This document shows positions 13,545-43,549 of a stretch of DNA of 64,000 bases, piece after piece. This stretch comes from an uncultured Spirochaetales bacterium (lineage in GTDB: Bacteria > Myxococcota_A > UBA9160 > SMWR01): positions 4,664 through 68,663 of the forward strand of contig CAYPSI010000113.1 of the NCBI GenBank assembly GCA_964413375.1, in the 5' to 3' direction. Position 1 is the first letter of the stretch, and every line of letters begins with the position of its first letter. The notes beneath the pieces were generated by a model. It made no database searches, was not told the DNA's origin, and saw nothing but the letters and a program-made list of their open reading frames with translations. The position numbers and the translations under genes are program-made.

Positions 13545-13548
13545 GGCG

Positions 13549-15734: not shown

Positions 15735-15812
15735 GTCTCCTCTCGGGTGTCGGTCGAAACTGTGCGCGGAGCCGCTCTTCCCGGACGGATCACCCGGCCC
15801 GGGAATCCGATC

Positions 15813-17153: not shown

Positions 17154-17156
17154 CGA

Positions 17157-17798
17157 TCAGCTCTCCAACTGGAAGCGGATGCGGACCTGGACGTTCGGGC
17201 GTTCGACGGGCTTTCCGTCCTGGACCTTCGGGTTGTACTTCCAACCCTTCACGGCCTGGAGTGCGGCGCGGTCGAAGATCGTCCTCGGCTCGGCATTCAG
17301 GACGATCGGGTTGCGGACGCTTCCATCCGATCCGACCGTGAACTGGACGTCGACCCAGCCCTCGATCCTCTTCTGCCGCGCCTGGATCGGGTAGTCGGGC
17401 TGGATCCGCACCTGCGGCACGGCGTCGCGGTCGACCCCCCCGCCGACCGCAAGGTCGCTGGCGGCCAGACCGACTCCGGCACCGCCCGCGCCGAAGCCCG
17501 AGAAGTCCACCGACGGCGCGAGCGCGGCGAGGTCCGCCCCCGGAGCAACGCCGAGCCGTTCCGAGCTGGCCACGCTCTCGGCCTTCGGCGGCGGAGCCGG
17601 CTTCTCGATCTGGGGCTTCACCCTTCTCCTCTCCTCGACCGCGCTGTCCCTGCGCAGCCGCACGAACTCGATCTTCCGCGGAGGCTCCAGCTCGTCGATC
17701 GCGCCGCCAGCACCCATCAGCACTCGAAGCAGCCAGAAGAGGCCCACAGAGATGCCGGAAGCAATCAGAAGTGCCAGCGGAAGCCGAAGTCGTGTCAA
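17157..17798 (-). CDS. tonB: Energy transducer TonB
   Basis: TTG start preceded by AGGAAGGAAG. It has an N-terminal anchor and a Pro-rich spacer (KPQIEKPAPPPKAE). The TonB C-terminal domain reads PDYPIQARQKRIEGWVDVQFTVGSDGSVRNPIVL...ALQAVKGWKYNP. Confidence 0.85.
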   Translation of the reverse strand: MTRLRLPLALLIASGISVGLFWLLRVLMGAGGAIDELEPPRKIEFVRLRRDSAVEERRRVKPQIEKPAPPPKAESVASSERLGVAPGADLAALAPSVDFSGFGAGGAGVGLAASDLAVGGGVDRDAVPQVRIQPDYPIQARQKRIEGWVDVQFTVGSDGSVRNPIVLNAEPRTIFDRAALQAVKGWKYNPKVQDGKPVERPNVQVRIRFQLES

Positions 17799-23187: not shown

Positions 23188-23201
23188 CCCCCGCGTGCCG
23201 C

Positions 23202-24230
23202 TCAGAGCACGAGCTCCGCCACGAGCCGCAGCGCGTCGACCTGACCCGTGCCGAGCAACATCGTATCGACCGGAGAGTCCTTCCAGGCCTTCACACGCTC
23301 GGTGATCCGCGCGCGGGGACCGACGAGCGCGACCTCGTCGACGAGCGCGTCGGGCACCGCCGCCATCGCCTCGGCCTTCTTCCCGGCGAGGAAGAGATCC
23401 TGGATCTGCGCCGCTTCCGCCGCGTAGCCCAGACGCTTCGCATAGTCGTTGTAGAAGTTCTTCGCACGGGCGCCCATGCCGCCGATGTAGAGCGCGAGCA
23501 TGCCCTTCACGGGCATGCGGCACTTCTCGAGGTCGTCCCCGAGCACGACGCTGACGAAGGGGGCCACGTCGAAGTCGGCCCGACGCCTGCTCCCGCCGGC
23601 CTTGGCGAGGCCGCGCGCGAGCGGGCCCTCGACGACCTCGGCCTTGGCCGGGCTCATCCACACCGGGAAGACGCCGTCGGCGACCTCGCCGGCGCACTCG
23701 AGCCCCGGCTCGCTGATCGCAGCGGTGTAGATCGGGATGTCGGCCCGGCCGTGCAGGATGCTCTTCAGCGGCTTGCCGAGCCCTGTCGCACCCTCACCCG
23801 CGTAGGGAATCTGATAGTGGTAGCCCTTGTGCTCGAGCGGCGCTTCGCGCGCCAGGATCTTGCGCACGATGGTCACGTACTCGCGGGTGCGCGTGAGCGG
23901 CCGACCGTAGGCCACACCGTGCCAGCCCTCGATCACCTGCGGGCCGGAAGGCCCGAGCCCGAGGCGGAAGCGCCCCCCCGAGAGCACGTCGAGCGACATC
24001 GCCGTCATCGCCGTCATCGCGGGCGAGCGCGCCGGCATCTGCATGATCGCGGTCCCGAGCCCGATCCGCGTGGTGCGCGCTGCGATGTAGGAGAGCGGGA
24101 CGATCGCGTCGTTGCCGTAGGCCTCGGCCGTCCACACCGAGTCGTAGCCGAGCTTCTCGGCCTCGAGGATGACTTCCCAGGGGATGGTGAGCTTGGGTCC
24201 GAAATTGCTGGTGACGAGTCCGAGGCGCAT
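23202..24230 (-). CDS. LLM-class (luciferase-like) flavin/F420-dependent oxidoreductase
   Basis: ATG at 24230 ([11 protein letters not shown]...). The TIM-barrel LLM pattern reads [47 protein letters not shown]...[11 protein letters not shown]. Confidence 0.85.
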
Positions 24231-27348: not shown

Positions 27349-28422
27349 GTGCAGATCGTCACCTTCGAGCGTCGCGACGACAACGCGGATCCGGCGGGCC
27401 GGCGCGAGCACTCGATGAGCGACGAAATGGCCGGCTTCGAGGGGCTCGAAGCGGTGGCCGTTGGAGCGCGCCGCCTCGGCTCGATCCTTCCGACCGGCGC
27501 GCACGCCGGCGCGGTGGTCGACCTGAACCGGGCCCTCGCGATCAAGCTCGCGGACGAAGATTCGGGGGCACCGGAGGCCGAGGCCGATTCGCTGCTCCCG
27601 ACCGAGATGATCGCGTTCCTGCGCCGCCTGCCGGGCTCGCTCGCCGCGGCGCGCAACGCACTCGATTTCGCGCTCGACGCCCTCTCGCGCTACGACGCGC
27701 CGGACCTGCTGCGCGCCGGCGTCGTCGCGCCGCGCTCGGGCGTGCGCCTGTGCGCCCCCGTGCCGCGCCCCGGGAAGATCGTCGGCGTCGCGCGCAACTA
27801 TCCCTCGCATGCGGCGGAGCGGGGGTCCACCACCACCCCGGAGAATCCGGTGCTCTTCCTGAAGGCGCCCTCGGCGGTGATCGGACCGGAGGACGAGATC
27901 CTGCTTCCCTCCTGCTCCGAACGGGTCGACTTCGAGGGCGAGCTCGCCGCGGTGATCGGCACTCGCGCGCGCGAGGTCTCCCCGAGCTCCGCCCTCGCCT
28001 GCGTCTTCGGCTACTGCGTGGCCAACGACGTCACCGCGCGCGACATCCAGGACAAGCGCGGCCAGCGATCGATCGCCAAGTCCTGCGACAGCTTCGCTCC
28101 GCTCGGCCCGGTGCTCGTCACCGCCGACGAGGTGCCGGACCCGCAGGACCTCGCGATCCGCACCGTCCTCTCCGGGGAGGTCGTGCAGAGTGCGCGGACC
28201 AAGGAGATGCTCTTCGGCGTGGCGCGTCTCGTCTCCTTCGCGTCGCACCTGATGACGCTCGAGCCCGGCGACGTGATCCTCACCGGAACGCCGGCCGGCG
28301 TCGGCGCCGCGCGCACGCCGCCGCGCTGGCTCCGCGACGGAGACATCGTCGAGGTGGCGATCGAGCGCGTCGGCCGTCTGCGCAGCTACGTACGCGGATC
28401 GGGCGTTCAGAGCGGCGTGTAA
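27349..28422 (+). CDS. Fumarylacetoacetate hydrolase (FAH) family protein
   Basis: GTG start with GGAGGG upstream. FAH core: GKIVGVARNYPSHAAE...VDFEGELAAVIG...NDVTARDIQ...KSCDSFAPLGP...GDVILTGTPAGVG. Confidence 0.85.
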   Translation: MQIVTFERRDDNADPAGRREHSMSDEMAGFEGLEAVAVGARRLGSILPTGAHAGAVVDLNRALAIKLADEDSGAPEAEADSLLPTEMIAFLRRLPGSLAAARNALDFALDALSRYDAPDLLRAGVVAPRSGVRLCAPVPRPGKIVGVARNYPSHAAERGSTTTPENPVLFLKAPSAVIGPEDEILLPSCSERVDFEGELAAVIGTRAREVSPSSALACVFGYCVANDVTARDIQDKRGQRSIAKSCDSFAPLGPVLVTADEVPDPQDLAIRTVLSGEVVQSARTKEMLFGVARLVSFASHLMTLEPGDVILTGTPAGVGAARTPPRWLRDGDIVEVAIERVGRLRSYVRGSGVQSGV

Positions 28423-28979
28423 CGGATCAGCACGCGGCTGCCGTCGGCGAAGCCCTGCCGGAAGCGGTCGCGCCAGCGCCCGATCTCCTCGGGGTACTTG
28501 AGCTCGTAGCTGGCGATCAGGCGCTCGAGCAGCGCCGCGTCGTTCACGACCGCTGCCCGCGCGTCGAAGGACGGCGCCTGGCGAAACTCCTGGTTGTGAC
28601 CGACGAGCTGCTTCCAGGTGCCGTGATCGCCAACCCAGATCCGAGCGCGGTCGAGCCCCTGCAGGACGGCGCGCGCCTTCCAGCGCTCGCGTGCGGTGAT
28701 CAGCACCACCGCGCCGTCGAGCCAGCCGAACCAGACTTCGCCGTGGCAGCGGCTCTCCTTGCCATCGGCGCGCAGCGGCGAGACGTAGACGAAGCCGCTG
28801 CGCTCGAGCGCGGTGTCGAGCGCCGGCTCGGCCGCCGCGGCGCGCGCCAGCCCGCGCGGCGCGAGGGCGGCGCCGAGCGCGATCAGCAGGAACTCGCGTC
28901 GCTGGATCAGATGCCGGATCCCTGGTCCTCCTCGTCGACGTGGATTCCGCACTCGCGGGTCTCCGGATCCTCCCACCAC
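28407..28979 (-). CDS. Tat-signal secreted hypothetical protein
   Basis: Twin-arginine motif QRREFLLIALGAALAP...ARAAAA. The start is uncertain. The GTG at 28979 overlaps cysH by 73 nt. A CTG at the cysH stop is the alternative. Confidence 0.6.
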   Translation of the reverse strand: MVGGSGDPRVRNPRRRGGPGIRHLIQRREFLLIALGAALAPRGLARAAAAEPALDTALERSGFVYVSPLRADGKESRCHGEVWFGWLDGAVVLITARERWKARAVLQGLDRARIWVGDHGTWKQLVGHNQEFRQAPSFDARAAVVNDAALLERLIASYELKYPEEIGRWRDRFRQGFADGSRVLIRYTPL

Positions 28980-29683
28980 CAGCGGCCGGCGCGCAAGTCC
29001 TCGCCCGGCGCGATGGCCCGCGAGCAGGGATCGCAGCCGACGGAGGGATAGCCCTGGGCATTGAGGCGGTTGGTCGGGATCTCATGAGCGTGCACGTAGT
29101 CCATCACCGCGTCGTGGGTCCAGTCCGCAATCGGGTTGAGCTTCACGATGCCCCCGTTCACCGGGTCGAACTCGACCTTCGGCACCTCGCTGCGCGTCAC
29201 GTTCTGGTCGCGGCGCAGCCCGGCCACCCACGCGTCGAGAGTCGAGAGATGGCGGCGCAGCGGCTCGACCTTGCGGATCCGGCAACACAGCTGGCGATTC
29301 TCGATGGACTCGTAGAAGAGATTCACGCCCTTGCTCCGGACCATCGCCTCCACGTCCTCGGCGCGCGGGAAGACGACCTCGACCGGCTTGTCGTAGCGCT
29401 CGCGCACGCGGTCGATCAAGTCGTAGGTCGCCTGCGGCAGGCGCCCTGTGTCGAGCATGAAGACGCGCGAATGCGGGTCGATGCGATGCATCATGTCGAG
29501 CAGCACGAGCCCTTCGGGCGCGCCGAAGGAGCACGACAGTGCGATGCGTGGGGCGAAATTCTTGATTCCCCAAGTAAGGATTTCCTGGGCGCTCAACATT
29601 TCGGGCGCCCCAGAGGAGATGAATGACAACGCTTCGTCGTTCAAGGAGTTCTCGGTAGTGCGGGCGCTCGCAGGCATTGCCAT
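28907..29683 (-). CDS. cysH: Phosphoadenosine/adenosine phosphosulfate reductase (CysH family; Cys pattern of the Fe-S APS-reductase type)
   Basis: C-terminal ECGIH motif. It also has the extra cysteine pairs NRQLCCRIRKVEPL and SVGCDPCSRA, which characterise Fe-S-containing bacterial APS reductases. Confidence 0.9.
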   Translation of the reverse strand: MAMPASARTTENSLNDEALSFISSGAPEMLSAQEILTWGIKNFAPRIALSCSFGAPEGLVLLDMMHRIDPHSRVFMLDTGRLPQATYDLIDRVRERYDKPVEVVFPRAEDVEAMVRSKGVNLFYESIENRQLCCRIRKVEPLRRHLSTLDAWVAGLRRDQNVTRSEVPKVEFDPVNGGIVKLNPIADWTHDAVMDYVHAHEIPTNRLNAQGYPSVGCDPCSRAIAPGEDLRAGRWWWEDPETRECGIHVDEEDQGSGI

Positions 29684-29692
29684 GACCCCGTC

Positions 29693-29721
29693 AAGATATC
29701 CGGAACCAGGCGGCCTGCCAA
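29693..29721 (-). promoter_or_regulatory. Candidate sigma70-type promoter for cysH giving a near-leaderless mRNA
   Basis: On the minus strand: TTGGCA, 17 nt, TATCTT, 9 nt, ATG(29683). It lies in an unusually AT-rich 51-nt gap after the folK stop. Confidence 0.3.
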
Positions 29722-29734
29722 ATATTCCACAGTT

Positions 29735-30256
29735 TCAACTCGTAGAATAGTCGAGTGGCCCGAGCCTGCGTACCGCGCTGGGGTCCCGCACCCGGCCGGC
29801 CAGGCTCGCGATGCTCTCACCGCACCCGGGGTGTACGAGATCCGCCGCCAGATCGCACAGCGGCTCGAGCGCGAAGGCTCGCTCGTGCAGCCTTGGATGC
29901 GGCACCACCAGACCGGGCAGCTCGAGCACCAGGTCGTCGTAGAGCAGCAGATCGAGATCGAGGCGTCGCGGCTCGTTGCGCACGCCGCTGCGCGCGCGTC
30001 CCGCGCGCTCCTCGATCGCGAGGAGTTCCCCGAGGAGCGCGCGGGGGTCGAGCCGCGTGCGCAGCTCCACGGCGGCGTTCAGGTACGCCCGCTGCGGCGG
30101 CGGGCCGATCGGATCGGTCTCGTAGACCGCCGACACCGCTTCGACGCGGATCTGTGCGCTCGACTGGAGCGCCTCGACGGCGAAGGCGAGCAGCGCCGCG
30201 CGGTCGCCGAGGTTCGAGCCCAGGGACACGAAGGCGGTCGAGAAGGCTCGGCTCAC
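29735..30256 (-). CDS. folK: 2-amino-4-hydroxy-6-hydroxymethyldihydropteridine diphosphokinase
   Basis: I prefer the GTG at 30256 (173 aa). Motifs: AFVSLGSNLGD, YETDPIG, RWGPR-type segment RNEPRRLDLDLLLY, VPHPRLHERAF. Confidence 0.85.
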   Translation of the reverse strand: MSRAFSTAFVSLGSNLGDRAALLAFAVEALQSSAQIRVEAVSAVYETDPIGPPPQRAYLNAAVELRTRLDPRALLGELLAIEERAGRARSGVRNEPRRLDLDLLLYDDLVLELPGLVVPHPRLHERAFALEPLCDLAADLVHPGCGESIASLAGRVRDPSAVRRLGPLDYSTS

Positions 30257-30287
30257 CCCGCACAGGGTACAGCTACACTTTGCCGCC

Positions 30288-31565
30288 GTGCCGCCCTTCG
30301 AGCAGCTTCCGCCGCGCCTGTGCACGCCGGTTCCGGGCCCCCGCTCGCGCGCGCTGGCCGAGCGGCTGGCCTCGGTCGAGAGCCGCAACGTCACCTGTGT
30401 GCTGCCGACGCCGCCGATCTTCTGGGAGCGGGCGAGCGGCTGCAACGTCTGGGACGTCGACTCAAACCGCTACGTGGACCTCAGCGCAGGCTTCGGCGTC
30501 GCGAACGTCGGCCATTCGCACCCCCGGGTCGTCGCCGCGCTACAGACCCAGGTGCTGCGCCTGCTCCACGCTCTCGGCGACGTGCATCCGGCGGACACCA
30601 AGGTCGAGCTGCTCGAGGCCCTGGTGCGGCGCTTCCCGGGCGGCGGCCCGGCGCGCGCGGTGCTCGGGTCCTCGGGGTCGGACGCGGTCGAGGCTGCGCT
30701 CAAGACCGCGATGATCGCGACCGGGCGGGCCGGAGTCGTCGCCTTCGAGGGGGCCTACCACGGGCTCACGCTCGGCGCGCTAGACGCGACCTTCCGACCG
30801 CTCTTCCGCGATCCCTTCGCCGCGCGCCTCGCGCGCGCCACGCGCTTCGCCCGCTACGGGGACGCCGATGACGCGCTGCGCGAGGCCCGGCGCGCGGAAG
30901 TTCCGATCGGCGCCATCCTCGTGGAGCCGATCCAGGGGCGCGGCGGCGAGCGCATCCCCCCGCCGGGCTTTCTGCGCGAGCTGCGCGCGCTGTGCGACCG
31001 CGAGGCCTGGCTGCTGATCGTAGACGAGATCTACACCGGCTTCGGTCGGACCGGTCGCTGGTTCGCGTGCGAGCACGAGGGCGTCGTCCCGGATCTCTTG
31101 TGCGTCGGCAAGGGGCTCGCCTCGGGAATGCCCCTCTCGGCCTGCATCGGCCGCGCCGAGCTGATGGATCGCTGGCCGCCCTCGCAGGGCGAGTCACTCC
31201 ACACGCAGACCTTCCTCGGCCACCCGCCGGGCTGCGCGGCTGCACTCGCCTCGCTCGCGGTGATCGAGGAGGAAAGGCTCGTCGAGCGCTCCGCGGCGAC
31301 GGGTGCCCGCGCGCTCGCCCACCTGCGCGAACGACTCGCCAGCGCGGCAGGAGTGCGCGAGATCCGCGGGCGCGGGCTCCTGCTCGGGATCGAGTGCGAC
31401 ACCCCGGGGCGCGCCGCGCGCGCCTGCGCCGGTGCCCTCGCGCGCGGCGTGATCGCGCTCGTCTCCGGAGACGACGGCCGTGTGGTCTCCCTCACTCCTG
31501 CGCTCGGCATCGACCCGGAGCTGCTTGGGAGCTGCCTCGATGTGATCGCGGAGGAGCTCGCGTGA
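30288..31565 (+). CDS. Class-III (omega/GabT-like) PLP aminotransferase
   Basis: GTG start. TPVPGPRS opening, GFGVANVGHSHPRVV, GSDAVEAALK, DEIYTGFGRTG and the PLP lysine in CVGKGLASG. Confidence 0.9.
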   Translation: MPPFEQLPPRLCTPVPGPRSRALAERLASVESRNVTCVLPTPPIFWERASGCNVWDVDSNRYVDLSAGFGVANVGHSHPRVVAALQTQVLRLLHALGDVHPADTKVELLEALVRRFPGGGPARAVLGSSGSDAVEAALKTAMIATGRAGVVAFEGAYHGLTLGALDATFRPLFRDPFAARLARATRFARYGDADDALREARRAEVPIGAILVEPIQGRGGERIPPPGFLRELRALCDREAWLLIVDEIYTGFGRTGRWFACEHEGVVPDLLCVGKGLASGMPLSACIGRAELMDRWPPSQGESLHTQTFLGHPPGCAAALASLAVIEEERLVERSAATGARALAHLRERLASAAGVREIRGRGLLLGIECDTPGRAARACAGALARGVIALVSGDDGRVVSLTPALGIDPELLGSCLDVIAEELA

Positions 31566-32659
31566 GCCGGACCCGCGCGCTCCTCGAGGCGGATCTCCTC
31601 AGCTGGATGCGCGAAGACGCCTGGCGCCCCGACGACGCGCGCTTCGCAGGACTGGCTCTCGAGGTCTTCGCGTTCCAGTTCGAGCGCTGCGAGCCCTACC
31701 GGCGCTTCTGCACCCGACGCGCTGCGACACCGGATCGCGTCGAAGACTGGCGGGCGATCCCGCCGGTGCCGACCGGTGCGTTCAAGGAGGTCCCGCTGCG
31801 CTGCTTTCCCGCGGAGCACAGCGTCCGCACCTTTCGCACCAGCGGTACGAGCGGGGCGGCGCGAGGCGAGATCCACCTCGACAGCCTCTCGCTCTACGAG
31901 GCCTCGCTGCTCCCGACCCTTCGCCGCCATCTGCTTCCGGACCTCGCGCCGGGGCAGAGGGCGCTCATCCTGGCACTCGCTCCCCCGCCCGAGGAGGCGC
32001 CGGATTCGTCGCTCACCCACATGTTCGCGACCGCGATCGCGGCCTTCGGGGCGCCCGGGAGCGCCTTCTTCGTATCCGACGGCGCGCTGCGCGAGAAGGA
32101 GCTGCAAGGCGCGCTCGAGGCTGCGGGAGAGGCGCCTCTGCTGGTCGCGGGAGCGGCCTTCGCCTTCGTGCACCTGCTCGACGCGCTCGAGCGCGCGGGC
32201 GCGAAGCTCTCGCTCCCCGCGTCGGCACGCATCATGGAGACGGGCGGGTTCAAGGGGCGCACGCGATCGCTGCCGCGCGAGGAGCTGCACGCGGCACTCG
32301 CCGATCGCCTCGGCGTCCCCACTCGGCGCATCGTGAACCAGTACGGCATGACGGAGCTCGGGAGCCAGTTCTACGACTCGACTCTCGCCGAGCCTGGCAG
32401 CACGCGCCGAAAGCTCGGACCGCCCTGGGTGCGCGTGCGGATCGTCGACCCGGAGAGCGATCGCGAGGTCTCCGCGGGCGGGCCGGGCGCGATCGTCGTC
32501 CTCGATCTCGCCAATCTCGCGAGCGTCTCCGCGATCCGCACCGCCGACCTCGGACGCCGCGTCGGCGACGGCTTCGAGGTGCTCGGGCGCGAGCCGGGCG
32601 CCGAGGAACGCGGCTGCTCGATCGCCGTCGACGAGCTCCTCGGCGGCGCGAGCGGGTGA
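31562..32659 (+). CDS. LuxE-like acyl-protein synthetase / acyl-adenylate-forming enzyme
   Basis: The GTG at 31562 overlaps the aminotransferase stop (GTGA). Motifs: FQFERCEPYRRFC, FRTSGTSG P-loop-like motif, METGGFKGR, VNQYGMTELGSQFY. All are typical of the LuxE/PaaK-like family. Confidence 0.8.
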   Translation: MSRTRALLEADLLSWMREDAWRPDDARFAGLALEVFAFQFERCEPYRRFCTRRAATPDRVEDWRAIPPVPTGAFKEVPLRCFPAEHSVRTFRTSGTSGAARGEIHLDSLSLYEASLLPTLRRHLLPDLAPGQRALILALAPPPEEAPDSSLTHMFATAIAAFGAPGSAFFVSDGALREKELQGALEAAGEAPLLVAGAAFAFVHLLDALERAGAKLSLPASARIMETGGFKGRTRSLPREELHAALADRLGVPTRRIVNQYGMTELGSQFYDSTLAEPGSTRRKLGPPWVRVRIVDPESDREVSAGGPGAIVVLDLANLASVSAIRTADLGRRVGDGFEVLGREPGAEERGCSIAVDELLGGASG

Positions 32660-33936
32660 CGCCCGCCGAGCTGCGGGCGCGGCTCGCGCAGCTGCGCGCG
32701 GCCGGGGCCGAGCTGCGCGCGCGACCGGCCCGGGAGACGCTCGACGCCGTCGCCGGCGTGCTCGATGTGTGGCGCGACCCGGCCTCCGGCGCGCGGGCGG
32801 CGCTCGAGGCGGAGCTCCCCGCGGCGACCGGGTTCTCGCCGGCGATGGTCCGCGAGGGGCTCTCGCGCGCACTGCGGGGATGGAGCGGTGACGCGCTGCG
32901 CGCGCTCGTGGACGCGGAGCTCGGCGGCAGCGCGGCCCTCGACGGAGAGGGATCGAGCGCCGCGGCGGGCTTCGACGCGACCAGCGTGATCCTCGCAGGT
33001 GCGATCCCGATGCCGACGCTGCTGGCTCTCGTCGTGCCGCTCGTACTGCGCTCGCCGGTACTGGCGAAGGCGGCAGCGCGCGATCCGGTGACGCCGCGCC
33101 TCGTCGCCCGGTCCATCGCAGAAGTCGACGCCGGGCTCGGGCGCGCGGTCGCGGTGGTCGAGATCCCGCGCGACCAGGCCGAGCTCGGGGCCGCGCTCCT
33201 CGAGGCCGACTGCATCTGGGCAACGGGGTCGGATGCCGCGGTGGCCGCCCTGCGTGCCCGCGCGCAGGGCGCGCGACGCATCGTGGCCCACGGTCACCGC
33301 CTGTCGCTCGCGCTGCTGGGGCCTGCCGCCGTGAGCGGCCAGGCGCTCCGCGAGGCCGCCAGCGGCCTCGCGCTCGACATCGCGCTCTGGGACCAGCTCG
33401 GCTGTCTCTCTCCGGTGTCGGTGCACGTGGTCGAGGCCGATCCGGGAGCCTGCGATCGCGTCGCGGAGGCGCTGGCCGCAGCGCTCGCGGCAGCGGAGGA
33501 GCGTTGGCCACGCGGGCGGGTGTCGGCGGCCGCGGCCGCCTCGATCGGGGCGGAGCGCGACGAGGCGGAGCTGCGCGCTGCGACGGGTCGCCGCATACGG
33601 GTCTTCGCGGGCCCGGGGACGGCCTGGACGGTCGTTCGCGAGGATGCGCCGGCGCTGCGGACCGCGCCGCTGCACCGCTTCATCCGGGTACACCCGGCCG
33701 GGTCGACCGCTGAGCTCGCCGCGGCGCTGGCCCCCGCGGCACGCCACCTCGCCGGGGTCGCGATCGCGGGTTTCGGCACGCACACCCGGGATGCATCGCG
33801 CACGCTGGCCGCTCTCGGCGCCTCGCGCGTCTGCTCGCCCGGGACGCTCCAGACGCCCCCGCTGGCCTGGCACCACGAGGGCGAGGGCGTCCTGTTGCCC
33901 TTCGCCCGCTTTACCGATGTCGAGGTGGAGGAGTAG
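32656..33936 (+). CDS. LuxC-like acyl-CoA/acyl-protein reductase (aldehyde-forming)
   Basis: The GTG at 32656 overlaps the LuxE-like stop (GTGA). ILAGAIPMPTLLALVVPLVLRSPVLAK, HGHRLS and the candidate catalytic Cys in WDQLGCLSPVSVHV follow the LuxC/ALDH-like pattern. Confidence 0.8.
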   Translation: MTPAELRARLAQLRAAGAELRARPARETLDAVAGVLDVWRDPASGARAALEAELPAATGFSPAMVREGLSRALRGWSGDALRALVDAELGGSAALDGEGSSAAAGFDATSVILAGAIPMPTLLALVVPLVLRSPVLAKAAARDPVTPRLVARSIAEVDAGLGRAVAVVEIPRDQAELGAALLEADCIWATGSDAAVAALRARAQGARRIVAHGHRLSLALLGPAAVSGQALREAASGLALDIALWDQLGCLSPVSVHVVEADPGACDRVAEALAAALAAAEERWPRGRVSAAAAASIGAERDEAELRAATGRRIRVFAGPGTAWTVVREDAPALRTAPLHRFIRVHPAGSTAELAAALAPAARHLAGVAIAGFGTHTRDASRTLAALGASRVCSPGTLQTPPLAWHHEGEGVLLPFARFTDVEVEE

Positions 33937-33949
33937 AGTAGGAGGGGCC

Positions 33950-35470
33950 GTGAAGATCTACCTCGTCACGCCGCGGAACCCTCCGAGCTTCTGGACCTAC
34001 GACACCATCCTCCCCGTCCTCGGCAAGCGCTGCATCTTCCCGAATCTCTCGATGCCGACGCTGGCCGGGCTCACCTCGGACGAGCACGAGGTCGTGCTCT
34101 GCGACGAGAACGTCGAGGAGATCGACTTCGACGTCGATGCCGATCTGGTCGGCGTTACCGGCTACATCATCCACAAGCCGCGCATGCTCGAGATCGTGGA
34201 GGCCTTCCGGCAGCGTGGCCGCTTCGTCGCCGTGGGGGGGCCTTTCGCCTCGCTCTGCCCGGAGGAGTGGCGGGGCCGCTGCGACGCACTCTTCGTGGAC
34301 GAAGCCGAGGAGACCTGGCCCGAGTTCCTGCGCGATTTCGCAGCGGGCCGCGAGCGCGCCGAGTACCGCCCCGACGAGAAGCCCGATCTCACGCGGGCGC
34401 CCGCGCCGCGCTTCGACCTGCTCAAGGTGGAGCGCTATCACGCGCTCACGATCCAGTTTTCGCGCGGCTGCCCCTTCACCTGCGATTTCTGCGACATCAT
34501 CGTCGTCTATGGCCGCAGGCCGCGCGCAAAGACCGTGGCACAGGCGATGGAGGAGATCCGCGCCTGCCACCGCCTGGGCGCGCGTCAGATCTTCATCGTC
34601 GACGACAACTTCATCGGAAACAAGAAGCTCGCCAAGGAGCTGGTGCGCGAGATGGGAATCTGGGGCGCAGAGCGGGGCTGGCCGATCGATTTCCAGACGG
34701 AGGTGTCGCTGAACCTGGCGCAGGACGAGGAGCTACTGCGCTTGATGCACGCGGCAAACTTCACCACCGTCTTCGTCGGGATCGAGAGCCCGCGGCGGGA
34801 GTCCCTCCGGGAATCGGGAAAGACCCAGAACATCCGCGGCGACCTGCTCGAAAGCGTGCGGCGGATCCAGGCGCACGGGATCCAGGTGCAGGCCGGGATG
34901 ATCGTGGGTTTCGACCACGACGACGAGTCGATCTTCGAGGAGCAGCTCCGCTTCATCCAGGAGGCGCGAATTCCCGTCTCGATGACCGGGATGCTCCAGG
35001 CGATGCCGAAGACGCCGCTCCACGAGCGTGTGGCGCGCGAGGGAAGGCTGCTCTCCGCTTCGACGGGCGACCAGTTCGTGTTCTCGAACATCATGCCGCG
35101 GGGCATGAGCCGCCGCGCGCTCTACGAGGGCTACCGCCGCCTCGTGCATCAGCTCTACGACTTCGGCCACTATCGCAAGCGGGCGCTCGCCTATCTGATG
35201 CACCGCGGGCACCAGGTCCACGGCGGACGCAACGTGCGCCGAGGAGACCTCGCGCGGCTCGGGCGCGTGCTCCACGAGACGGTGATCCGCGGGGGTCCGC
35301 GACGCGCGTGGTTCACGCTCTCGTTGCTCGGCGCGACGCTCCTGCGCAGGCCCTCCGTCTTCAAGGAAGCCGTCTCCTTCGCGATCGTTCACAAGGCCTT
35401 CCACAGCTACGTCGAAGCGCTGATTCGAGACCTCGACGCCCGGGTACGGGAACTGCCGGACGCGCGATGA
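33950..35470 (+). CDS. B12-binding-domain radical SAM protein with DUF4070-like C-terminus
   Basis: GTG at 33950 with GGAGG 5 nt upstream. It has an N-terminal cobalamin-binding-like Rossmann domain. The SAM cluster motif is SRGCPFTCDFCDI (CxxxCxxC). The track ORF from 33644 is over-extended. Confidence 0.9.
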   Translation: MKIYLVTPRNPPSFWTYDTILPVLGKRCIFPNLSMPTLAGLTSDEHEVVLCDENVEEIDFDVDADLVGVTGYIIHKPRMLEIVEAFRQRGRFVAVGGPFASLCPEEWRGRCDALFVDEAEETWPEFLRDFAAGRERAEYRPDEKPDLTRAPAPRFDLLKVERYHALTIQFSRGCPFTCDFCDIIVVYGRRPRAKTVAQAMEEIRACHRLGARQIFIVDDNFIGNKKLAKELVREMGIWGAERGWPIDFQTEVSLNLAQDEELLRLMHAANFTTVFVGIESPRRESLRESGKTQNIRGDLLESVRRIQAHGIQVQAGMIVGFDHDDESIFEEQLRFIQEARIPVSMTGMLQAMPKTPLHERVAREGRLLSASTGDQFVFSNIMPRGMSRRALYEGYRRLVHQLYDFGHYRKRALAYLMHRGHQVHGGRNVRRGDLARLGRVLHETVIRGGPRRAWFTLSLLGATLLRRPSVFKEAVSFAIVHKAFHSYVEALIRDLDARVRELPDAR

Positions 35471-35907
35471 GCAGGGGCGGCTCCTTCGCGCGCTTCGCCG
35501 CGCTCGCGCTTCTTCTCGCCGCGGCCCTCGCCGCGGGTGGCGGCGACGCCCGTGCCGCGGAGATCGACTGGACTCCCTTCGCGGAGGAGGACGTGGTCGA
35601 GATCCTGACGGTCGATCCCGACGGCGAGCCGCGCGAGACCAAGGTCTGGGTGGTGGTGGTCGGCGACGCGGCCTACGTGCGGACCAACGACTCGCGCTGG
35701 CTTGCGAACATCCGCCGTGACCCCCTGTTCCGGATGCGCGTACGCGAGCGCGAGTTCCCGCTCCGCGCGGTGGAGGCGACGGAGCGCGAGACGATCGAGC
35801 GCGTCGAGGCGGGCTTCAAGGCAAAGTACGGCTTCATGCAGCGCGTGATGAGCACGCTGCGCCTGCGGGAGCCGACGGTCCTTCGCCTGGAACCCGGTCA
35901 GCGCTAG
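35467..35907 (+). CDS. Small secreted hypothetical protein
   Basis: The ATG at 35467 overlaps the rSAM stop (ATGA). Signal peptide FAALALLLAAALAAGGGDARA. The mature part is about 115 aa, with a weak shared pattern with the 28407-28979 protein. Confidence 0.6.
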   Translation: MSRGGSFARFAALALLLAAALAAGGGDARAAEIDWTPFAEEDVVEILTVDPDGEPRETKVWVVVVGDAAYVRTNDSRWLANIRRDPLFRMRVREREFPLRAVEATERETIERVEAGFKAKYGFMQRVMSTLRLREPTVLRLEPGQR

Positions 35908-35956
35908 AGGGCGGGCGGCCGTGTAGTCTCCGGGATCGTTCTCCCCGGAGGCCCGC

Positions 35957-37336
35957 GTGTCCCCCCTTCGCGCCGAGCTCCGCAAGATGCTGGCCCTTGG
36001 GCTCCCCGTCGCGGGAACCCAGGTCAGCACCATGCTGATCGGCGTGGTCGACGCGATCATGGTCGGGCACGTCAGCGTGGACGCGATGGCGGCCGCGGCG
36101 CTCGCGAACGTATGGATCTGGGCGACTTTCATGTTCGCGCAGGGCATGCTGATGGGACTCGATCCCATCGTCGCGCAGGCCCACGGCGCCGGCGACGGCG
36201 AGCGGGCCGGGCGCGCGCTGCACAGCGGCGTCGCGATGGCGCTGGTCCTCTCGGTGGCGCTCGCACTCCTGTGGCTCGCGACGGAGCGGATTCTGCTGCT
36301 CTCGGGCCAGGACCCGGAGCTCGCCCGGGGAGCTCACCTGTACACGATCGTCCAGATTCCGAGCATCCCCTTCTTTCTCGTCTACACTGCCTTGCGTCAG
36401 TACCTGCAGGGGCGCGAGTACATGCGGCCGGCGCTCTTCGTGATTCTCGGCGCAAACGTGTTGAACGTGCTCTTCGCCTGGTCGCTGATCTTCGGCCATC
36501 TGGGCTTTCCCGCACTCGGCCTCGTCGGCGCCGGGATCGCAGCGTGCCTCACGCGCGTGGTGAGCGGCGTCGGACTCGTTGCGCTCGTCGCCGGCTTCGG
36601 ACTCCACCGGGGGGCCTGGGTGCCCTTCGGACACGGCTCGCTCCGCGCGAGCGACCTGCGCGAAGTCGTGGCCTTCGGCATTCCGATCGCGATCCAGGTC
36701 TCGCTCGAGTCCTGGGCCTTCTCGGGAGCGGCGTTGCTCGTGGGCCACCTCGGGTCCACCGCGCTCGCAGCGCACACGATCGTGCTGAATCTCGCGTCGC
36801 TCTCGTTCATGATGCCGCTCGGAATCTCGCAGGGCGCCGCGACGCGCGTCGGGAACCTGCTCGGGGCAGGCCAGCCGGCTGCCGCGCAGCGCGCGGCCTG
36901 GGTCTCGCTCGCACTCGGTGCGGGCGTGATGGCTCTCGCGGCCCTGGCCTTCGTCGCGTTCCGCGAGGGATTGCCGCGCCTGTACACTCCCGACGTCTCG
37001 GTGATCGCAGCCTGCGCGGCGATCCTGCCGATCGCGGCCGCCTTCCAGATCTTCGACGGGACCCAGGCGGTGGGCTGCGGAATCCTGCGCGGGATGGGAC
37101 GGGTGCGGCCCGCCGTCGCGTTCAACCTGATCGGCTACTGGCTGATCGGTCTGCCGCTCGGGGGCTGGCTCGCGCTGCGCGGCGGCCATGGCCTCGCCGG
37201 CCTCTGGTGGGGGCTGGCCCTCGGGCTCGCGCTGGTGGCCACGTCGCTGGTGGTCTTCGTGGCGCTGCGCGGACCCGGCGTCCAGCCCCGGGGGGAGCTC
37301 GCAGCGGACCCTGCCCGCATCGGTACCGACTCCTAG
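35957..37336 (+). CDS. MATE-family efflux transporter
   Basis: GTG with GGAGG 6 nt upstream. 12 predicted helices. MATE opening LRKMLALGLPVAGTQVSTMLIGVVDAIMVGHV and the second-half repeat LREVVAFGIPIAIQ. Confidence 0.9.
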   Translation: MSPLRAELRKMLALGLPVAGTQVSTMLIGVVDAIMVGHVSVDAMAAAALANVWIWATFMFAQGMLMGLDPIVAQAHGAGDGERAGRALHSGVAMALVLSVALALLWLATERILLLSGQDPELARGAHLYTIVQIPSIPFFLVYTALRQYLQGREYMRPALFVILGANVLNVLFAWSLIFGHLGFPALGLVGAGIAACLTRVVSGVGLVALVAGFGLHRGAWVPFGHGSLRASDLREVVAFGIPIAIQVSLESWAFSGAALLVGHLGSTALAAHTIVLNLASLSFMMPLGISQGAATRVGNLLGAGQPAAAQRAAWVSLALGAGVMALAALAFVAFREGLPRLYTPDVSVIAACAAILPIAAAFQIFDGTQAVGCGILRGMGRVRPAVAFNLIGYWLIGLPLGGWLALRGGHGLAGLWWGLALGLALVATSLVVFVALRGPGVQPRGELAADPARIGTDS

Positions 37337-37423
37337 AACCATCGAGATTTCGCCCGAGAACGCCTTCCGATGCATAGAGGACTGTGCCAGTCCGATATTT
37401 ACAGTACCGCCGGGGTCCGATAT

Positions 37424-37439
37424 CCTCGAGGTCTCGAGG
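37424..37439 (+). promoter_or_regulatory. Inverted repeat CCTCGAG-gt-CTCGAGG covering the likely RBS of the Rrf2 gene
   Basis: Read directly. The 7-bp arms end 5 nt before the GTG at 37445. Two CCGATAT direct repeats lie just upstream (37391-37397 and 37417-37423). Confidence 0.25.
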
Positions 37440-37444
37440 TTCCC

Positions 37445-37939
37445 GTGATCCGTCTCAGCCGTCTCTCCGATTACGGCATCGTCTTGATGGCCCAGCTCGC
37501 CGGTCGGGCCGGGAGCGTGCCCTCGAACGCGCGCGAGGTGGCGGCCGAGGTCCACTTGCCGCTCCCAGTCGTCAGCAAGGTGTTGAAGGCGCTCGCGCGG
37601 CGCGGGCTCCTCGTCTCGCACCGCGGGGCGAAGGGTGGCTACAGCCTCGCGCGGCCGCCGGAAGAGATCACCGCGGCCGAGATGATCGCCGCGCTCGAGG
37701 GCCCGATCGGCCTCACGGAGTGCGTCGCCCATCCGGGCCAGTGCGTGCAGGAGGCGAGCTGCCACGTCCGCGAGCCGTGGCAGCGCATCAACAGCGTCGT
37801 GCGGCGCGCACTGACGGAGGTCACGCTCGCCGATCTCGTCACGCACGCGCCACAGGCCGGCGACACGCTTTCGATCCACCCGCTCGGCTCGGGCCCGCGC
37901 CACGCGCAGGCGCCCCTGACCGACGCCCGACACCGCTAG
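37445..37939 (+). CDS. Rrf2-family transcriptional regulator (IscR/SufR-like, three-Cys cluster ligands)
   Basis: [19 protein letters not shown] opening, w[30 protein letters not shown], and Cys ligands in [19 protein letters not shown]. Confidence 0.85.
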
Positions 37940-37947
37940 AGGGAGCC

Positions 37948-39405
<1,458 letters not shown>

Positions 39406-39427
39406 CCCGATGGAAGGAACGCAAGCG

Positions 39428-40179
<752 letters not shown>

Positions 40180-40180
<1 letters not shown>

Positions 40181-41514
40181 TGGACGCGCTCGAGACCGCT
40201 CGCGACCACTATGTCGCGCGCCACGCCGCCTGGGGCGCGGCGCGCCGGAACGAGCCCGCATGGCTCGCCCGGATGCGACGCGATGCCGCGGCGCGCTTCG
40301 CGGAGGTGGGGCTTCCGCACACGCGCCTCGAGGAATGGCGCTACACGAGCCTGACCCGCTTCGCGCGCGTGCCCTTCGAGCTCACCACCGCCTCGGCGCC
40401 GGTCTCTCGCCAGGCGCTCGAGCGGGTTTCGTTCCCGGTCTATGCGTGCAGCGTCTACGCCTTCGTCGACGGCGCCTACCGGCCCGAGCTATCCGCGCCG
40501 CCCGCGCTGACGGCCGGCGTGCGCGTCATGAGCCTCGCGGAGCTCCTCGCGAGCGAGCCCGAGCGTGTCGAGGCGGAGCTCGGCAGCCTCGTGGATCCGA
40601 AGCTCCATCCCTTCGCCGCACTCAACACCGCGTTCCTCGAAGACGGCGCCGTGCTGCTCATACCCCGCGGCACCCGGCTCCCCCAGCCCATCCACGTGGT
40701 CTTCGCCTCCTCCGGCGCGGAGCCCGACCGCGTTCGGCACCCCCGCGTGCTCGTCGTCGCCGGACCCGAGAGCCATTGTGAGTTGATCGTCGACCACGTC
40801 GATCTCGCGCCTGTGCGGGGCTTCACGAACGCGGTGATCGAGGTGCGCGTCGAGCGCGCCGCCGAACTCGGACTGATGCTCGTGCAGCGCGAGGCGGACC
40901 AGACCACCCACATCTCGAATCTCGGTGCGCGCGTCGAGCGCGACGCGCGTCTCTCGGCCCACACCCTGACGCTCGGGGGCGCTCTGGTGCGCAACGACGC
41001 GAACGTGCTGCTCGCGGAGGAGGGGGCGAGCTGCCGGCTCAACGGCCTCTTCGCCGGGGACGGTGATCAGCTTCTCGACCACCATACGCTGATCGACCAC
41101 GCGATGCCGCACGGGGAGAGCCGCCAGCTCTACAAAGGCATCCTCGATGGCGGCGCCCGCGGCGTGTTCCGCGGCCGCGTGATCGTGCGACCCGGAGCAC
41201 AGCGCACCGACGCGGAGCAGTCGAACCCGAACCTGCTCCTCTCGCCCAGGGCCGAGGTCGACAGCAGGCCGCAGCTCGAGATCTACGCAGACGACGTGAA
41301 GTGCCGCCACGGATCGAGCATCGGGCGCCTCGACGAGGACGCGCTCTTCTACCTGCGCGCGCGCGGGCTCGACGAGGGCGAGGCCCGCGACATGCTGACG
41401 CGGGGCTTCGCCGCCGAGGTGCTCGATGCGCTCCCCGTTCCGGCGCTCGGGATGGCGCTCGCCACGCTCCTCGCCACCCGCATGGACCCTGCGGCCGAAG
41501 GAGCAGGGTCGTGA
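40180..41514 (+). CDS. sufD: Fe-S cluster assembly protein SufD
   Basis: The ATG shares one base with the sufC stop (TGATG). SufB/D beta-helix C-terminal pattern: PQLEIYADDVKCRHGSSIGRLDEDALFYLRARGL. Confidence 0.9.
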
Positions 41515-42764
41515 GCGCGGGAGCCCGGGCCCCGGCCACCCGTCCGGCCTTCGACGCGGAGCGCGTACGCGAAGAGTTCCCGATCCTCGCCGAGCGCGTG
41601 CACGGCAAGCGCCTCGTCTTCCTCGACAGCGCGTCGAGCGCGCAGAAGCCGCGTCGCGTGCTCGACGCGATGAACGCCTTCTACGAGCACGACTACGCGA
41701 ACGTCCACCGCGGCGTCTACCTGCTCTCCGAGCGGGCGACCGCAGCCTTCGAGTCCGTCCGCGAGAAGGTCCGCGCCTTCCTCGGCGCGCCGGAGGCGCG
41801 CGAGGTGATCTTCGTCCGCGGAACGACCGAGGCGATCAACCTCGTCGCGCACAGCTTCGGCGGTGCCCGGGTGGGCGCGGGCGACGAAGTGCTCGTGACG
41901 CAGATGGAGCACCACTCGAACATCGTCCCCTGGCAGATGCTCTGCGAGGAGAAGGGCGCGCGACTGCGCGTGGTGCCGGTGGACGACCGGGGCGATCTGC
42001 GACTCGAGGCGCTGGAAGCACTCCTCGGGCCGCGCTCGCGCATGCTCGCGGTGACGCACGTGTCGAACACGCTCGGCAGCGTGAACCCGCTGCGCGAGAT
42101 CGTGCGGATGGCCCATGCGCGCGGCGTACCGGTGCTGGTAGACGGCGCGCAGGCGGCGCCCCACCTGCGCATCGACGTGCAGGAGCTCGGCTGCGACTTC
42201 TATGCCTTCTCGGGTCACAAGGTCTTCGGCCCGACGGGCGCCGGCGTGCTGTGGGGGCGCGCCGAGCACCTCGAGGCGATGCCACCCTGGCAGGGCGGTG
42301 GCGACATGATCCTCTCGGTCTCCTTCGAGAAGACGCTCTACCGCGAGATTCCCTACCGCTTCGAGGCGGGGACACCCGACATCGCCGCCGTCGTCGGCCT
42401 CGGCGCAGCGATCGACTGGCTCGGCGAGATCGACCCGCAGGCGGCCGCCGCGCACGAGCGCGACCTGCTGCTGCATGCGACGGAAGCCCTCGCGGCGATC
42501 CCAGGGCTTCGGCTCGTCGGCACACCACGCGAGCGCGTCGGAGTCGTCTCCTTCGTGCTCGACGACGTCCATCCCCACGACGTCGGCACGATCCTCGATC
42601 ACGAGGGGATCGCGGTTCGCACCGGACACCACTGCACGCAGCCGCTGATGGAGCGCTTCGGGGTGCCGGCGACGATCCGCGCCTCCTTCGCGCTCTACAA
42701 CGAGCGCGAGGACGTGGACTCCCTCGTGGCCGGGATCGCCCGCGTGCGCGAGGTCTTCGCCTGA
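41511..42764 (+). CDS. sufS: Cysteine desulfurase SufS (group II)
   Basis: GTGA overlap with sufD. FPIL...VFLDSASSAQKP, ANVHRG, the PLP site FSGHKVFGPTGAGVL, and the active-site loop RTGHHCTQPL. Confidence 0.95.
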   Translation: MSAGARAPATRPAFDAERVREEFPILAERVHGKRLVFLDSASSAQKPRRVLDAMNAFYEHDYANVHRGVYLLSERATAAFESVREKVRAFLGAPEAREVIFVRGTTEAINLVAHSFGGARVGAGDEVLVTQMEHHSNIVPWQMLCEEKGARLRVVPVDDRGDLRLEALEALLGPRSRMLAVTHVSNTLGSVNPLREIVRMAHARGVPVLVDGAQAAPHLRIDVQELGCDFYAFSGHKVFGPTGAGVLWGRAEHLEAMPPWQGGGDMILSVSFEKTLYREIPYRFEAGTPDIAAVVGLGAAIDWLGEIDPQAAAAHERDLLLHATEALAAIPGLRLVGTPRERVGVVSFVLDDVHPHDVGTILDHEGIAVRTGHHCTQPLMERFGVPATIRASFALYNEREDVDSLVAGIARVREVFA

Positions 42765-43213
42765 TGCAGGAGCTGCGCGAGCTATACCAGTCCGTGATCC
42801 TCGATCACAACAAGCTGCCGCGGAACTTCGCGCGGCCCGAGCGCGCGAACCGCGAGGCCCACGGGCACAACCCGCTCTGCGGCGACAAGCTCGAGGTCTT
42901 CGCGGAGGTGGACGAGGGCGTGCTGCGCGCGGTCGGCTTCCAGGGTTCCGGCTGTGCCATTTCGAAGGCGTCTGCGTCGCTGATGACCGAGGCGGTGAAG
43001 GGCAAGACCCTCGCCGAGATCGAGCAGCTCTTCGGAGGTTTTCACCGCGCCGTGACCTCCGATGCGCGCACGCCGGTCGACGCCTCGGGCCTCGGCAAGC
43101 TCGAGGTCTTCGTCGGCGTTCGCGAGTTCCCGATCCGCGTCCAGTGCGCCACGCTCGCCTGGCACACGCTGCGCGCCGCGCTTGCCGGCGAAGAGAACGC
43201 GAGCACGGAGTAG
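42764..43213 (+). CDS. sufU: SufU/IscU-like sulfur acceptor scaffold
   Basis: TGATG junction with sufS. LYQSVILDHNKLPRNF, NPLCGD, GSGCAISKAS and CATLAW motifs. Confidence 0.9.
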   Translation: MQELRELYQSVILDHNKLPRNFARPERANREAHGHNPLCGDKLEVFAEVDEGVLRAVGFQGSGCAISKASASLMTEAVKGKTLAEIEQLFGGFHRAVTSDARTPVDASGLGKLEVFVGVREFPIRVQCATLAWHTLRAALAGEENASTE

Positions 43214-43216
43214 AGC

Positions 43217-43549
43217 ATGCAAGAAAGCACGAGCCCCCATGGCGTCGAAGCGGTCCGCGCGAGCATCATCGAGCGGCTGCGAACCGTCTACGACCCGGAG
43301 ATCCCCGTCGATATCTACGAGCTCGGCCTGATCTACGAGGTGAAGGTCGACGAGGCCGGGAAGGTCGGGATCCGCATGACGCTGACCTCGCCGATGTGCC
43401 CTGCCGCGGAGGCGCTCCCGTCCGAGGTCGAGACCAAGGCCCGCGAGGTCGAGGGAGTCACCAGCGTGGCTCTCGAGCTCGTCTGGGACCCGCCGTGGAC
43501 CCCCGAGCGCATGTCCGAGGCCGCGAAGCTCGAGCTCGGGATGGTTTAG
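43217..43549 (+). CDS. sufT: DUF59/SufT-like Fe-S assembly protein
   Basis: 110 aa with VYDPEIPVDIYELGLIY and TLTSPMCPAAEALP motifs. Confidence 0.85.
   Translation: MQESTSPHGVEAVRASIIERLRTVYDPEIPVDIYELGLIYEVKVDEAGKVGIRMTLTSPMCPAAEALPSEVETKAREVEGVTSVALELVWDPPWTPERMSEAAKLELGMV

Follow-up and report, generated by a model that had tools for sequence, protein, structure and literature searches.

Nature offers, to our knowledge, few routes by which a fatty or other carboxylic acid becomes a primary amine, and the known ones lie within natural-product clusters, such as those of the tambjamines and prodiginines. In a tambjamine cluster, the LuxC-like reductase TabE and the omega-transaminase TabA make dodecylamine (bioRxiv 10.1101/2025.08.11.669332), which sets a precedent for the chemistry considered here. 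The acyl-relay mechanism of LuxEC has been described (PMC12041015), and the LuxE + LuxC pair has another, non-luminous use in the flagellin glycosylation islands of Aeromonas, which also hold an acyl carrier protein (ACP), a 3-oxoacyl-ACP reductase, an AMP-dependent synthetase and glycosyltransferases (PMC7874193). Here we analyze a stretch of 64,000 nucleotides (hereafter the window) from an uncultured bacterium of the GTDB lineage Myxococcota_A (GenBank assembly GCA_964413375.1, contig CAYPSI010000113.1, positions 4,664 to 68,663), in which genes for a class-III aminotransferase, a LuxE-like protein and a LuxC-like protein form a compact operon on the + strand, a candidate acid-to-amine module that is conserved across species.

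Aminotransferase, LuxE-Like and LuxC-Like Genes Form a Conserved Three-Gene Operon

The window has a G+C content of ~70%, which fills raw open reading frame (ORF) lists with spurious frames, and genes were called by third-position GC. This gave six + strand genes at 30288-37336, with the same coordinates as in a first-pass annotation made from the sequence alone. Gene calling and direct reading of the sequence confirmed every overlap, gap and GGAGG site described there, and the families it had named (aminotransferase, LuxE, LuxC, B12-radical SAM and MATE) hold as well, with all six Pfam assignments exceeding gathering cut-offs. The first gene (30288-31565) encodes an atypical class-III (omega) aminotransferase of 425 aa (PF00202, Aminotran_3, 324.7 bits). 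The second (31562-32659) encodes a LuxE-like acyl-protein synthetase of the adenylating type, 365 aa in length (PF04443, LuxE, 58.9 bits against a cut-off of 24.9), and the third (32656-33936) a LuxC-like, aldehyde-forming acyl-thioester reductase of 426 aa (PF05893, LuxC, 197.1 bits against 21). Both junctions within this trio are GTGA overlaps, at 31562-31565 and 32656-32659. Close gene spacing is widespread in this genome. Among the 44 neighboring same-strand pairs of the window, 9 share 4 or 1 nt and 16 are separated by a gap of at most 15 nt. Thus, the packing of the six-gene block is real but not unusual and says little alone. What does stand above chance is that the first three genes stay together from genome to genome.

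Linkage was assessed by a one-genome-per-species scan with the LuxC-like protein, followed by tblastn of every window protein against the loci so found, with flanks of up to 10 kb. The denominators given below (71, 68 and 63) count assessable loci only, and the carriers are all uncultured metagenome-assembled genomes (MAGs). Unnamed metagenomic homologues of the LuxC-like protein number in the hundreds. Relatives were found in 252 species-level genomes, and the best 80 come nearly all from MAGs labelled Myxococcota or Deltaproteobacteria. In 69 of 71 loci from different species, genes for the LuxE-like protein and the aminotransferase lie directly upstream of the LuxC gene on the same strand. 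The wider neighborhood is also collinear in the lineage, with a histidine kinase, an FAA hydrolase, PAPS reductase and folK on one side and an Rrf2-SUF cluster and an MFS transporter on the other, indicating that the block belongs to the vertically inherited core chromosome and is not a mobile or sporadic biosynthetic island. When all ORFs from ~85 loci were clustered, no ACP, fatty acid synthase (FAS), polyketide synthase (PKS) or nonribosomal peptide synthetase (NRPS) gene was present in any neighborhood. The same clustering led us to reject further conserved accessory partners, lipid genes included, as it gave only unrelated sporadic insertions, among them a CDF transporter, an alpha/beta-hydrolase, a short-chain dehydrogenase/reductase (SDR), luciferase-like monooxygenase (LLM) family oxidoreductases, a MOSC protein and XseA. 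The functional unit is the three-gene operon aminotransferase-LuxE-LuxC at 30288-33936, and the three genes that follow it in the window are optional neighbors.

The LuxE-Like and LuxC-Like Proteins Retain Both Acyl-Carrying Cysteines

The sole solved-structure match of both the LuxE-like and the LuxC-like protein is the LuxC-LuxE fatty acid reductase complex of Photobacterium (7xc6), which each aligns with over nearly its full length. Specifically, residues 31-355 of the LuxE-like protein match LuxE of 7xc6 with an E value of 4.9e-10, and the LuxC-like protein matches LuxC with an E value of 4e-6. Cys352 of the LuxE-like protein, located in an RGCS sequence 14 residues from the C terminus, aligns with the acyl-carrying Cys364 of LuxE (7xc6_E) and is present in 74 of 75 aligned orthologues, the remaining one being gapped at this site. 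Conservation extends to the adenylation motifs TSGT, YGMTE and ETGGFKG. In the LuxC-like protein, Cys250 (WDQLGCLSP) aligns with the cysteine of the LuxC motif YDQQACFS (7xc6_A) and is invariant in 81 of 81 sequences. The profile searches place both middle genes of the first-pass annotation inside the LuxE and LuxC families. Their NCBIfam equivalog thresholds are far from reached (NF052244, 54.5 bits against 550; NF052251, 52.3 against 750), and these scores identify the two proteins as distant family members and not as orthologues of the luminescence enzymes. No LuxD acyltransferase and no LuxAB luciferase was found in the window or in ~90 related loci examined, in agreement with the earlier view that this is not a bioluminescence system.

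The Aminotransferase Has a Rewired Active Site

The best profile and solved-structure matches of the aminotransferase are GabT and ArgD types, with mycobacterial GabT enzymes as the best structures; racemases and epimerases of the same fold family are also among its solved-structure matches. It reaches no NCBIfam equivalog, the best score being 307.8 bits against a cut-off of 639, and all 25 models listed fall below their cut-offs. We scored its active-site residues over 73 orthologues, using the numbering of known sites in ornithine aminotransferase (OAT) and YgjG (PMC4244111). The lysine that binds pyridoxal phosphate (PLP), Lys275, is invariant (73/73). Four other positions are altered. Leu160 replaces the arginine of the YHGRT motif, which here reads YHGL, and is a leucine in 71 of the 73 sequences. 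Arg218 stands in place of the gating glutamate of QGEGG in all 73, and Tyr249 in place of the glutamine of DEVQTG in 69. Position 401, where the C-terminal arginine would be, is Ser, Ala, Gly or Cys and is arginine in none of the 73.

These positions have defined roles in characterized enzymes. The arginine corresponding to the first site (Arg180 of OAT) binds the substrate carboxylate in OAT, AcOAT and GABA-AT, and putrescine aminotransferase, the substrate of which has no carboxylate, has a lysine there; the Glu-Arg pair and the Gln are described as strictly conserved in class-III enzymes and needed for 2-oxoglutarate (PMC4244111). The loss of the carboxylate-binding arginine therefore suggests a substrate that has no carboxylate at that site, and the loss of the Glu-Arg pair and of the glutamine makes canonical binding of glutamate/2-oxoglutarate as the amino donor improbable. 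The carboxylate anchor may have shifted to Arg218, which is invariant. Together with the failure to reach any equivalog, the replaced residues show that this protein is not GabT or ArgD. One way in which the first-pass annotation could have failed, namely that the gene is a housekeeping GabT or ArgD orthologue with freely varying neighbors, can accordingly be set aside, since LuxE and LuxC adjoin it in nearly every locus.

A Sister Clade Pairs LuxE-LuxC with an Alcohol Dehydrogenase

An exhaustive search of 1.84 billion representative proteins returned 337 LuxC-like clusters at E ≤ 1e-30. These revealed a sister group of longer LuxC proteins (30-39% identity), with members from Gemmatimonadota, for which 80 loci were fetched and 36 were assessable. 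In 26 of the 36, a LuxE gene lies directly upstream of LuxC, and in none is there a class-III aminotransferase. Instead, 9 of those 26 loci have a Zn-alcohol dehydrogenase, identified by Pfam, that is either fused to the N terminus of LuxE or encoded just upstream of it. The exchange of aminotransferase for alcohol dehydrogenase indicates that the aldehyde is the common intermediate and the third enzyme its sink, and it lends independent support to an aldehyde-consuming role for the aminotransferase. These data fit a modular role for the LuxE-LuxC pair, in which a transferable acid-to-aldehyde unit is combined with one aldehyde sink or another.

Several arrangements seen in this wider set may be recorded. 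The sister-clade locus L150 encodes a Zn-alcohol dehydrogenase::LuxE fusion of 765 aa (5636-7933), and a Myxococcales MAG carries a LuxE::LuxC fusion of 785 aa (P0387). In ~10 sister-clade loci, a NitT/TauT-type ABC importer with an NMT1-family binding protein directly follows LuxC.

Proposed Function of the Operon and Competing Explanations

We consider it probable, though by no means secure, that the trio turns a free carboxylic acid into an aldehyde and then into a primary amine. The LuxE-like enzyme would adenylate the acid with ATP and load the acyl group as a thioester onto its own Cys352, from which it would pass to Cys250 of the LuxC-like enzyme. The latter would then reduce the acyl thioester with NAD(P)H to the aldehyde, which the aminotransferase would convert to the primary amine. 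A free acid is the likely substrate because no ACP, FAS, PKS or NRPS gene occurs in the neighborhoods. We infer the direction of flux and a hydrophobic substrate with no carboxylate nearby, for which conversion of a fatty acid to a fatty amine is the simplest guess. The acid-aldehyde-amine logic put forward in the first-pass annotation is the best reading of the trio.

Several observations weigh against this proposal. The aminotransferase is devoid of the Glu-Arg pair and the glutamine that are deemed strictly conserved in its class and has gained the invariant Arg218, and the presence of racemases and epimerases in its fold family means that it could catalyze a reaction other than transamination. 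Given the distant similarity to true LuxE and LuxC, acyl chain length is not transferable from the Lux enzymes. In addition, the wide conservation and fixed synteny of the operon suggest a core cellular role, and we know of no fatty-amine-containing component in Myxococcota.

A more far-reaching version of the acid-to-amine proposal can be offered only tentatively. It holds that the LuxE-LuxC pair is an undescribed, lineage-wide two-component carboxylic acid reductase; that the aminotransferase founds a new class-III subfamily, in which the arginine that binds the carboxylate has shifted from its C-terminal place to the site of the former gating glutamate; that the product is a primary alkylamine serving as a core cell component or signal in a large uncultured group of Myxococcota; and that related clades swap in an alcohol dehydrogenase to make an alcohol. 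If the acid-to-amine proposal is true, a compact, ACP-independent three-gene module would offer biocatalysis a new set of tools for converting free acids to amines, and its conservation in at least 250 species-level genomes would imply that an abundant, uncultured part of the Myxococcota has an as yet unrecognized amine metabolite. The rewired active site defines an aminotransferase subfamily that would inform substrate recognition in class-III enzymes.

One alternative, which we consider unlikely, places the trio in amino-acid or polyamine metabolism as a non-orthologous replacement, for example of ArgB/ArgC/ArgD (N-acetylglutamate to N-acetylornithine), or as a route to GABA, beta-alanine or a diamine from a dicarboxylate. 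Arginine and lysine biosynthesis follow the same order of activation, reduction and transamination, and the lineage-wide vertical conservation, with fixed synteny by the housekeeping genes folK, SUF and PAPS reductase, resembles that of core metabolism; the best matches of the aminotransferase, moreover, are of the GabT and ArgD types. This explanation is weakened by the loss of the carboxylate-binding arginine and by scores that approach no equivalog threshold.

It is improbable, in our view, that all six genes of the block form one pathway, in which the radical SAM enzyme would methylate or rearrange the acyl chain, the trio would produce the aldehyde and amine, and the DUF2255 and MATE proteins would handle and export the product. 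In the window, all six genes are coupled or no more than 49 nt apart. The radical SAM gene (33950-35470) follows LuxC after a 13-nt gap, with GGAGG upstream of its GTG at 33950; it shares an ATGA at 35467-35470 with the DUF2255 gene (35467-35907); and the MATE gene (35957-37336) follows after a gap of 49 nt, with GGAGG upstream of its GTG at 35957. Consensus scans found no promoter-like and no + strand terminator-like site within 30288-37336, which holds one - strand terminator-like site against 2.2 expected by chance. The junctions and these scans are compatible with a single transcript over the block in this organism. A terminator or hairpin in the 49-nt gap was considered and rejected, as the gap folds no better than shuffled sequence (z -0.36). 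Rfam searches, covering the whole window with gathering cut-offs and 29400-37600 with E values up to 1, gave no riboswitch or other RNA element. The same six-gene order is found in a close relative (L087), whose LuxC is 83% identical. Moreover, MATE pumps typically export lipophilic cations, and a fatty amine would be such a cargo.

The comparison across genomes argues against this larger pathway. A B12-radical SAM gene lies directly downstream of LuxC in 20 of 68 loci and anywhere downstream in 23, leaving 48 in which the trio stands without a radical SAM gene directly following LuxC, and MATE and DUF2255 genes are near the trio in 1 and 0, respectively, of the 68 representative loci. Even within the subclade of the window, the accessory genes occur in varied combinations. 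In the window and L087 the trio is followed by radical SAM, DUF2255 and MATE genes; in L089 by radical SAM and MATE, without DUF2255; in L175, another close relative, by DUF2255 and MATE, without radical SAM; and in L001 and L088 by radical SAM and then ~6.5 kb of unrelated genes before a MATE gene that still abuts Rrf2. Conversely, radical SAM near-orthologues with 73-74% identity occur with no trio nearby (L090-L093), so that the trio and the radical SAM gene can each occur without the other. The radical SAM protein is also more conserved than the trio enzymes, with a median identity to the window of 73% compared with 53% for LuxC, suggesting an independent conserved role. Thus, the self-contained six-gene pathway of the first-pass annotation does not hold across genomes: the order of the trio is conserved and that of the six genes is not, and operon packing in one genome had overstated the size of the pathway. 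The C-methylation and export steps that it entailed are speculative, since all three accessory genes are separable from the trio, and would at most be specific to this subclade. We take the last three genes to be co-transcribed neighbors in this genome, as the intergenic signals suggest, that are dispensable for the trio.

Finally, it is also unlikely that the aminotransferase homologue is instead a racemase, epimerase or other PLP enzyme, or that the module is catabolic (amine to aldehyde to acid), for although three of four residues deemed strictly conserved in class-III transaminases are replaced and several same-fold racemases and epimerases are among the structural matches, the PLP lysine and GabT-like architecture are kept, the LuxE-like enzyme is ATP-dependent, and the alcohol dehydrogenase of the sister clade points to aldehyde consumption.

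Radical SAM, DUF2255 and MATE Genes Downstream of the Trio

The fourth gene, a facultative neighbor of the trio, encodes a 506-aa protein with an N-terminal B12-binding domain (PF02310, 34.6 bits, cut-off 32.1), a radical SAM domain (PF04055, 67.8 bits) and a C-terminal DUF4070 domain (PF13282, 62.8 bits). Its CxxxCxxC triad (C174, C178 and C181) is invariant. Among characterized subfamilies, including HpnP/HpnR, PhpK, BchE and ladderane-type lipid radical SAM enzymes, it falls in none, the best NCBIfam score being 76.8 bits against 600. A search returned 7,728 matches, of which the best 120 all have at least 72% identity, and the family is thus very large and highly conserved. In L090 and L091, genes of this type lie beside FAD-oxidase, SDR and UbiA genes. 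In two Myxococcota loci without the trio (L092 and L093), an orthologue (73%) at 8001-9548 is located ~2 kb upstream of the Rrf2-SUF cluster (11668 onward). The gene may therefore be associated in position with the Fe-S assembly operon rather than with LuxC.

The fifth gene encodes a DUF2255 protein of 146 aa (38.6 bits), specific to the subclade, with a clear Sec-type signal peptide (MSRGGSFARFAALALLLAAALAAGGGDARA), so that its initial description as a small secreted protein stands. Its AlphaFold model (pLDDT 81.8) is a split beta-barrel, with HutZ/HugZ heme proteins and F420-dependent reductases as Foldseek neighbors (TM 0.5-0.6); the similarity to the F420 family is weak. A specific function could not be assigned from this generic split beta-barrel ligand-binding fold, and that idea was rejected. 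Being secreted, the protein is probably a small-ligand binder. DUF2255 follows the trio only in the nearest relatives (L087 and L175), and more distant homologues occur in unrelated contexts (L176 and L177). In L177 (7001-11061), a DUF2255 homologue with 53% identity lies 2.3 kb from another B12-binding/radical SAM/DUF4070 gene, with DUF1295 and an AMP-binding enzyme between them, which may be a recurring association or a coincidence.

The sixth gene, also specific to the subclade and remaining beside the Rrf2-SUF cluster, encodes a MATE family efflux transporter of 459 aa (Pfam MatE, 213 bits; NCBIfam TIGR00797, 270.5 bits, above the cut-off of 147.4). It might export a cationic product in this subclade. 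At most, the three accessory proteins modify or export the product of the trio there.

Boundaries and Chromosomal Setting

At its 5′ side the operon is bounded by folK (29735-30256, - strand), which lies outside the system and was recognized by the HPPK motif in its translation; orthologues in L003, L005, L089 and L175 carry the Pfam HPPK annotation. In 59 of 63 loci, a folK gene is found upstream of the aminotransferase gene at a distance of no more than 6.5 kb. In the window, only 31 nt (30257-30287) separate the folK start from that of the aminotransferase gene, and a similar divergent spacing of ~30 nt is seen in L175 and L088. With this spacing, either each promoter extends into the coding sequence of the opposite gene or the mRNAs lack leaders. 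The aminotransferase gene has no Shine-Dalgarno sequence, and a TACACT box lies 8 nt upstream of its GTG.

Upstream of folK are genes for PAPS reductase, an FAA-family hydrolase and a GAF histidine kinase. A 181-aa ORF at 28407-28952 (- strand) shares 46 nt with the PAPS reductase gene and 16 nt with the FAA hydrolase gene and is kept in 21 related loci; it has no confident family, with a weak PNPOx_N match below the cut-off.

The 3′ boundary is a SUF cluster (37445-43549, + strand), likewise outside the system and identified with Pfam and NCBIfam, which comprises an Rrf2-type SUF regulator (TIGR02944, 129.6 bits, above the cut-off of 110.65) followed by sufB-sufC-sufD-sufS-sufU and FeS_assembly_P. 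The Rrf2 gene directly follows LuxC in 18 of 68 loci. A sigma-70-like promoter-like site is found at 37398-37426, immediately before Rrf2. The sequence GTCCGATAT occurs twice at this promoter (37390-37398 and 37415-37423), overlapping the ends of its promoter-like hexamers, and a tandem CTCGAGGT CTCGAGGT is located at 37425-37440, just before the Rrf2 GTG at 37445. Both repeats are candidate operators for Rrf2 autoregulation. A functional tie between the trio and SUF was rejected as the default, as SUF is served by an Rrf2 regulator and a promoter-like site of its own, and the adjacency reflects shared lineage synteny.

Downstream of SUF are an MFS transporter and, convergent with it on the opposite strand, a second B12-binding radical SAM gene (44799-46385, 528 aa). 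The protein has no DUF4070 domain, is unrelated to the radical SAM protein of the block, falls in no characterized subfamily and is without a counterpart in those related loci that were examined.

Elsewhere, the window holds ordinary chromosomal genes, including those for a TonB/ExbBD system, a TonB-dependent receptor, a peptidase, PanE, BioA, methyltransferases, ProRS and a P450. A second class-III aminotransferase (21892-23130) was considered as a member of the system and rejected, as it is BioA (TIGR00508, 472.8 bits against 405). A luciferase-like gene (23202-24230) was likewise rejected as a LuxAB analogue, being an F420-dependent LLM oxidoreductase (TIGR03559, 397.5 bits against 335). 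The two adjoin at 21892-24230 (- strand), and the LLM oxidoreductase hints at the use of cofactor F420 by the organism. At 8650-17723 (- strand), a large cluster for TonB-dependent uptake contains a CarboxypepD_reg-type receptor, two ExbD, two ExbB/MotA, DUF3450 and TPR proteins and TonB, and three adjacent ORFs within 4843-8236 have no Pfam match.

Comparison with Known Systems

A full-text literature search found no described aminotransferase-LuxE-LuxC system; the first-pass annotation, for its part, knew of no described system with the gene set that it listed. Familiar as the logic is, we found no description of this combination of enzymes, of the rewired aminotransferase or of its conservation throughout a lineage.

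The operon resembles the Lux fatty acid reductase (7xc6) in its Pfam families, near-full-length alignments, acyl-relay cysteines and adenylation motifs, and in the implied ATP-dependent reduction of a free acid to an aldehyde. It differs in being very distant in sequence, in having no LuxD or LuxAB and in the order of its translationally coupled genes, LuxE then LuxC; the aldehyde is proposed to go to an aminotransferase and not to light production.

With the tambjamine enzymes TabE/TabA of Streptomyces and TamA/TamH of Pseudoalteromonas, compared here by description, the operon shares the sequence from acyl thioester through aldehyde to primary amine, and TabE falls in the same cluster of the aldehyde dehydrogenase superfamily as LuxC. 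Those routes use ACP- or CoA-bound acyl groups, have no LuxE and lie in sporadic natural-product clusters, whereas the operon described here has a LuxE-type activator and no ACP, stands outside any biosynthetic cluster and is vertically conserved in its lineage.

The aminotransferase keeps the fold, Pfam family, PLP lysine and DE.xTG.GRTG motif framework of GabT, ArgD, OAT and YgjG but differs from them in its four replacements (Leu, Arg, Tyr and Ser/Ala/Gly/Cys), which are conserved over the orthologues. The Aeromonas islands share with the operon a LuxE + LuxC pair put to a non-luminous use, but their ACP, 3-oxoacyl-ACP reductase, AMP-dependent synthetase and glycosyltransferases are all absent here. 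The Zn-alcohol dehydrogenase-LuxE-LuxC module of the sister clade, found in Gemmatimonadota and other metagenomic lineages, has LuxE and LuxC proteins with 30-38% and 41-50% identity, respectively, to those of the window and likewise combines them with an aldehyde-consuming partner. In that module, the partner is a Zn-alcohol dehydrogenase, sometimes fused to LuxE, in place of a class-III aminotransferase, and the predicted product is an alcohol.

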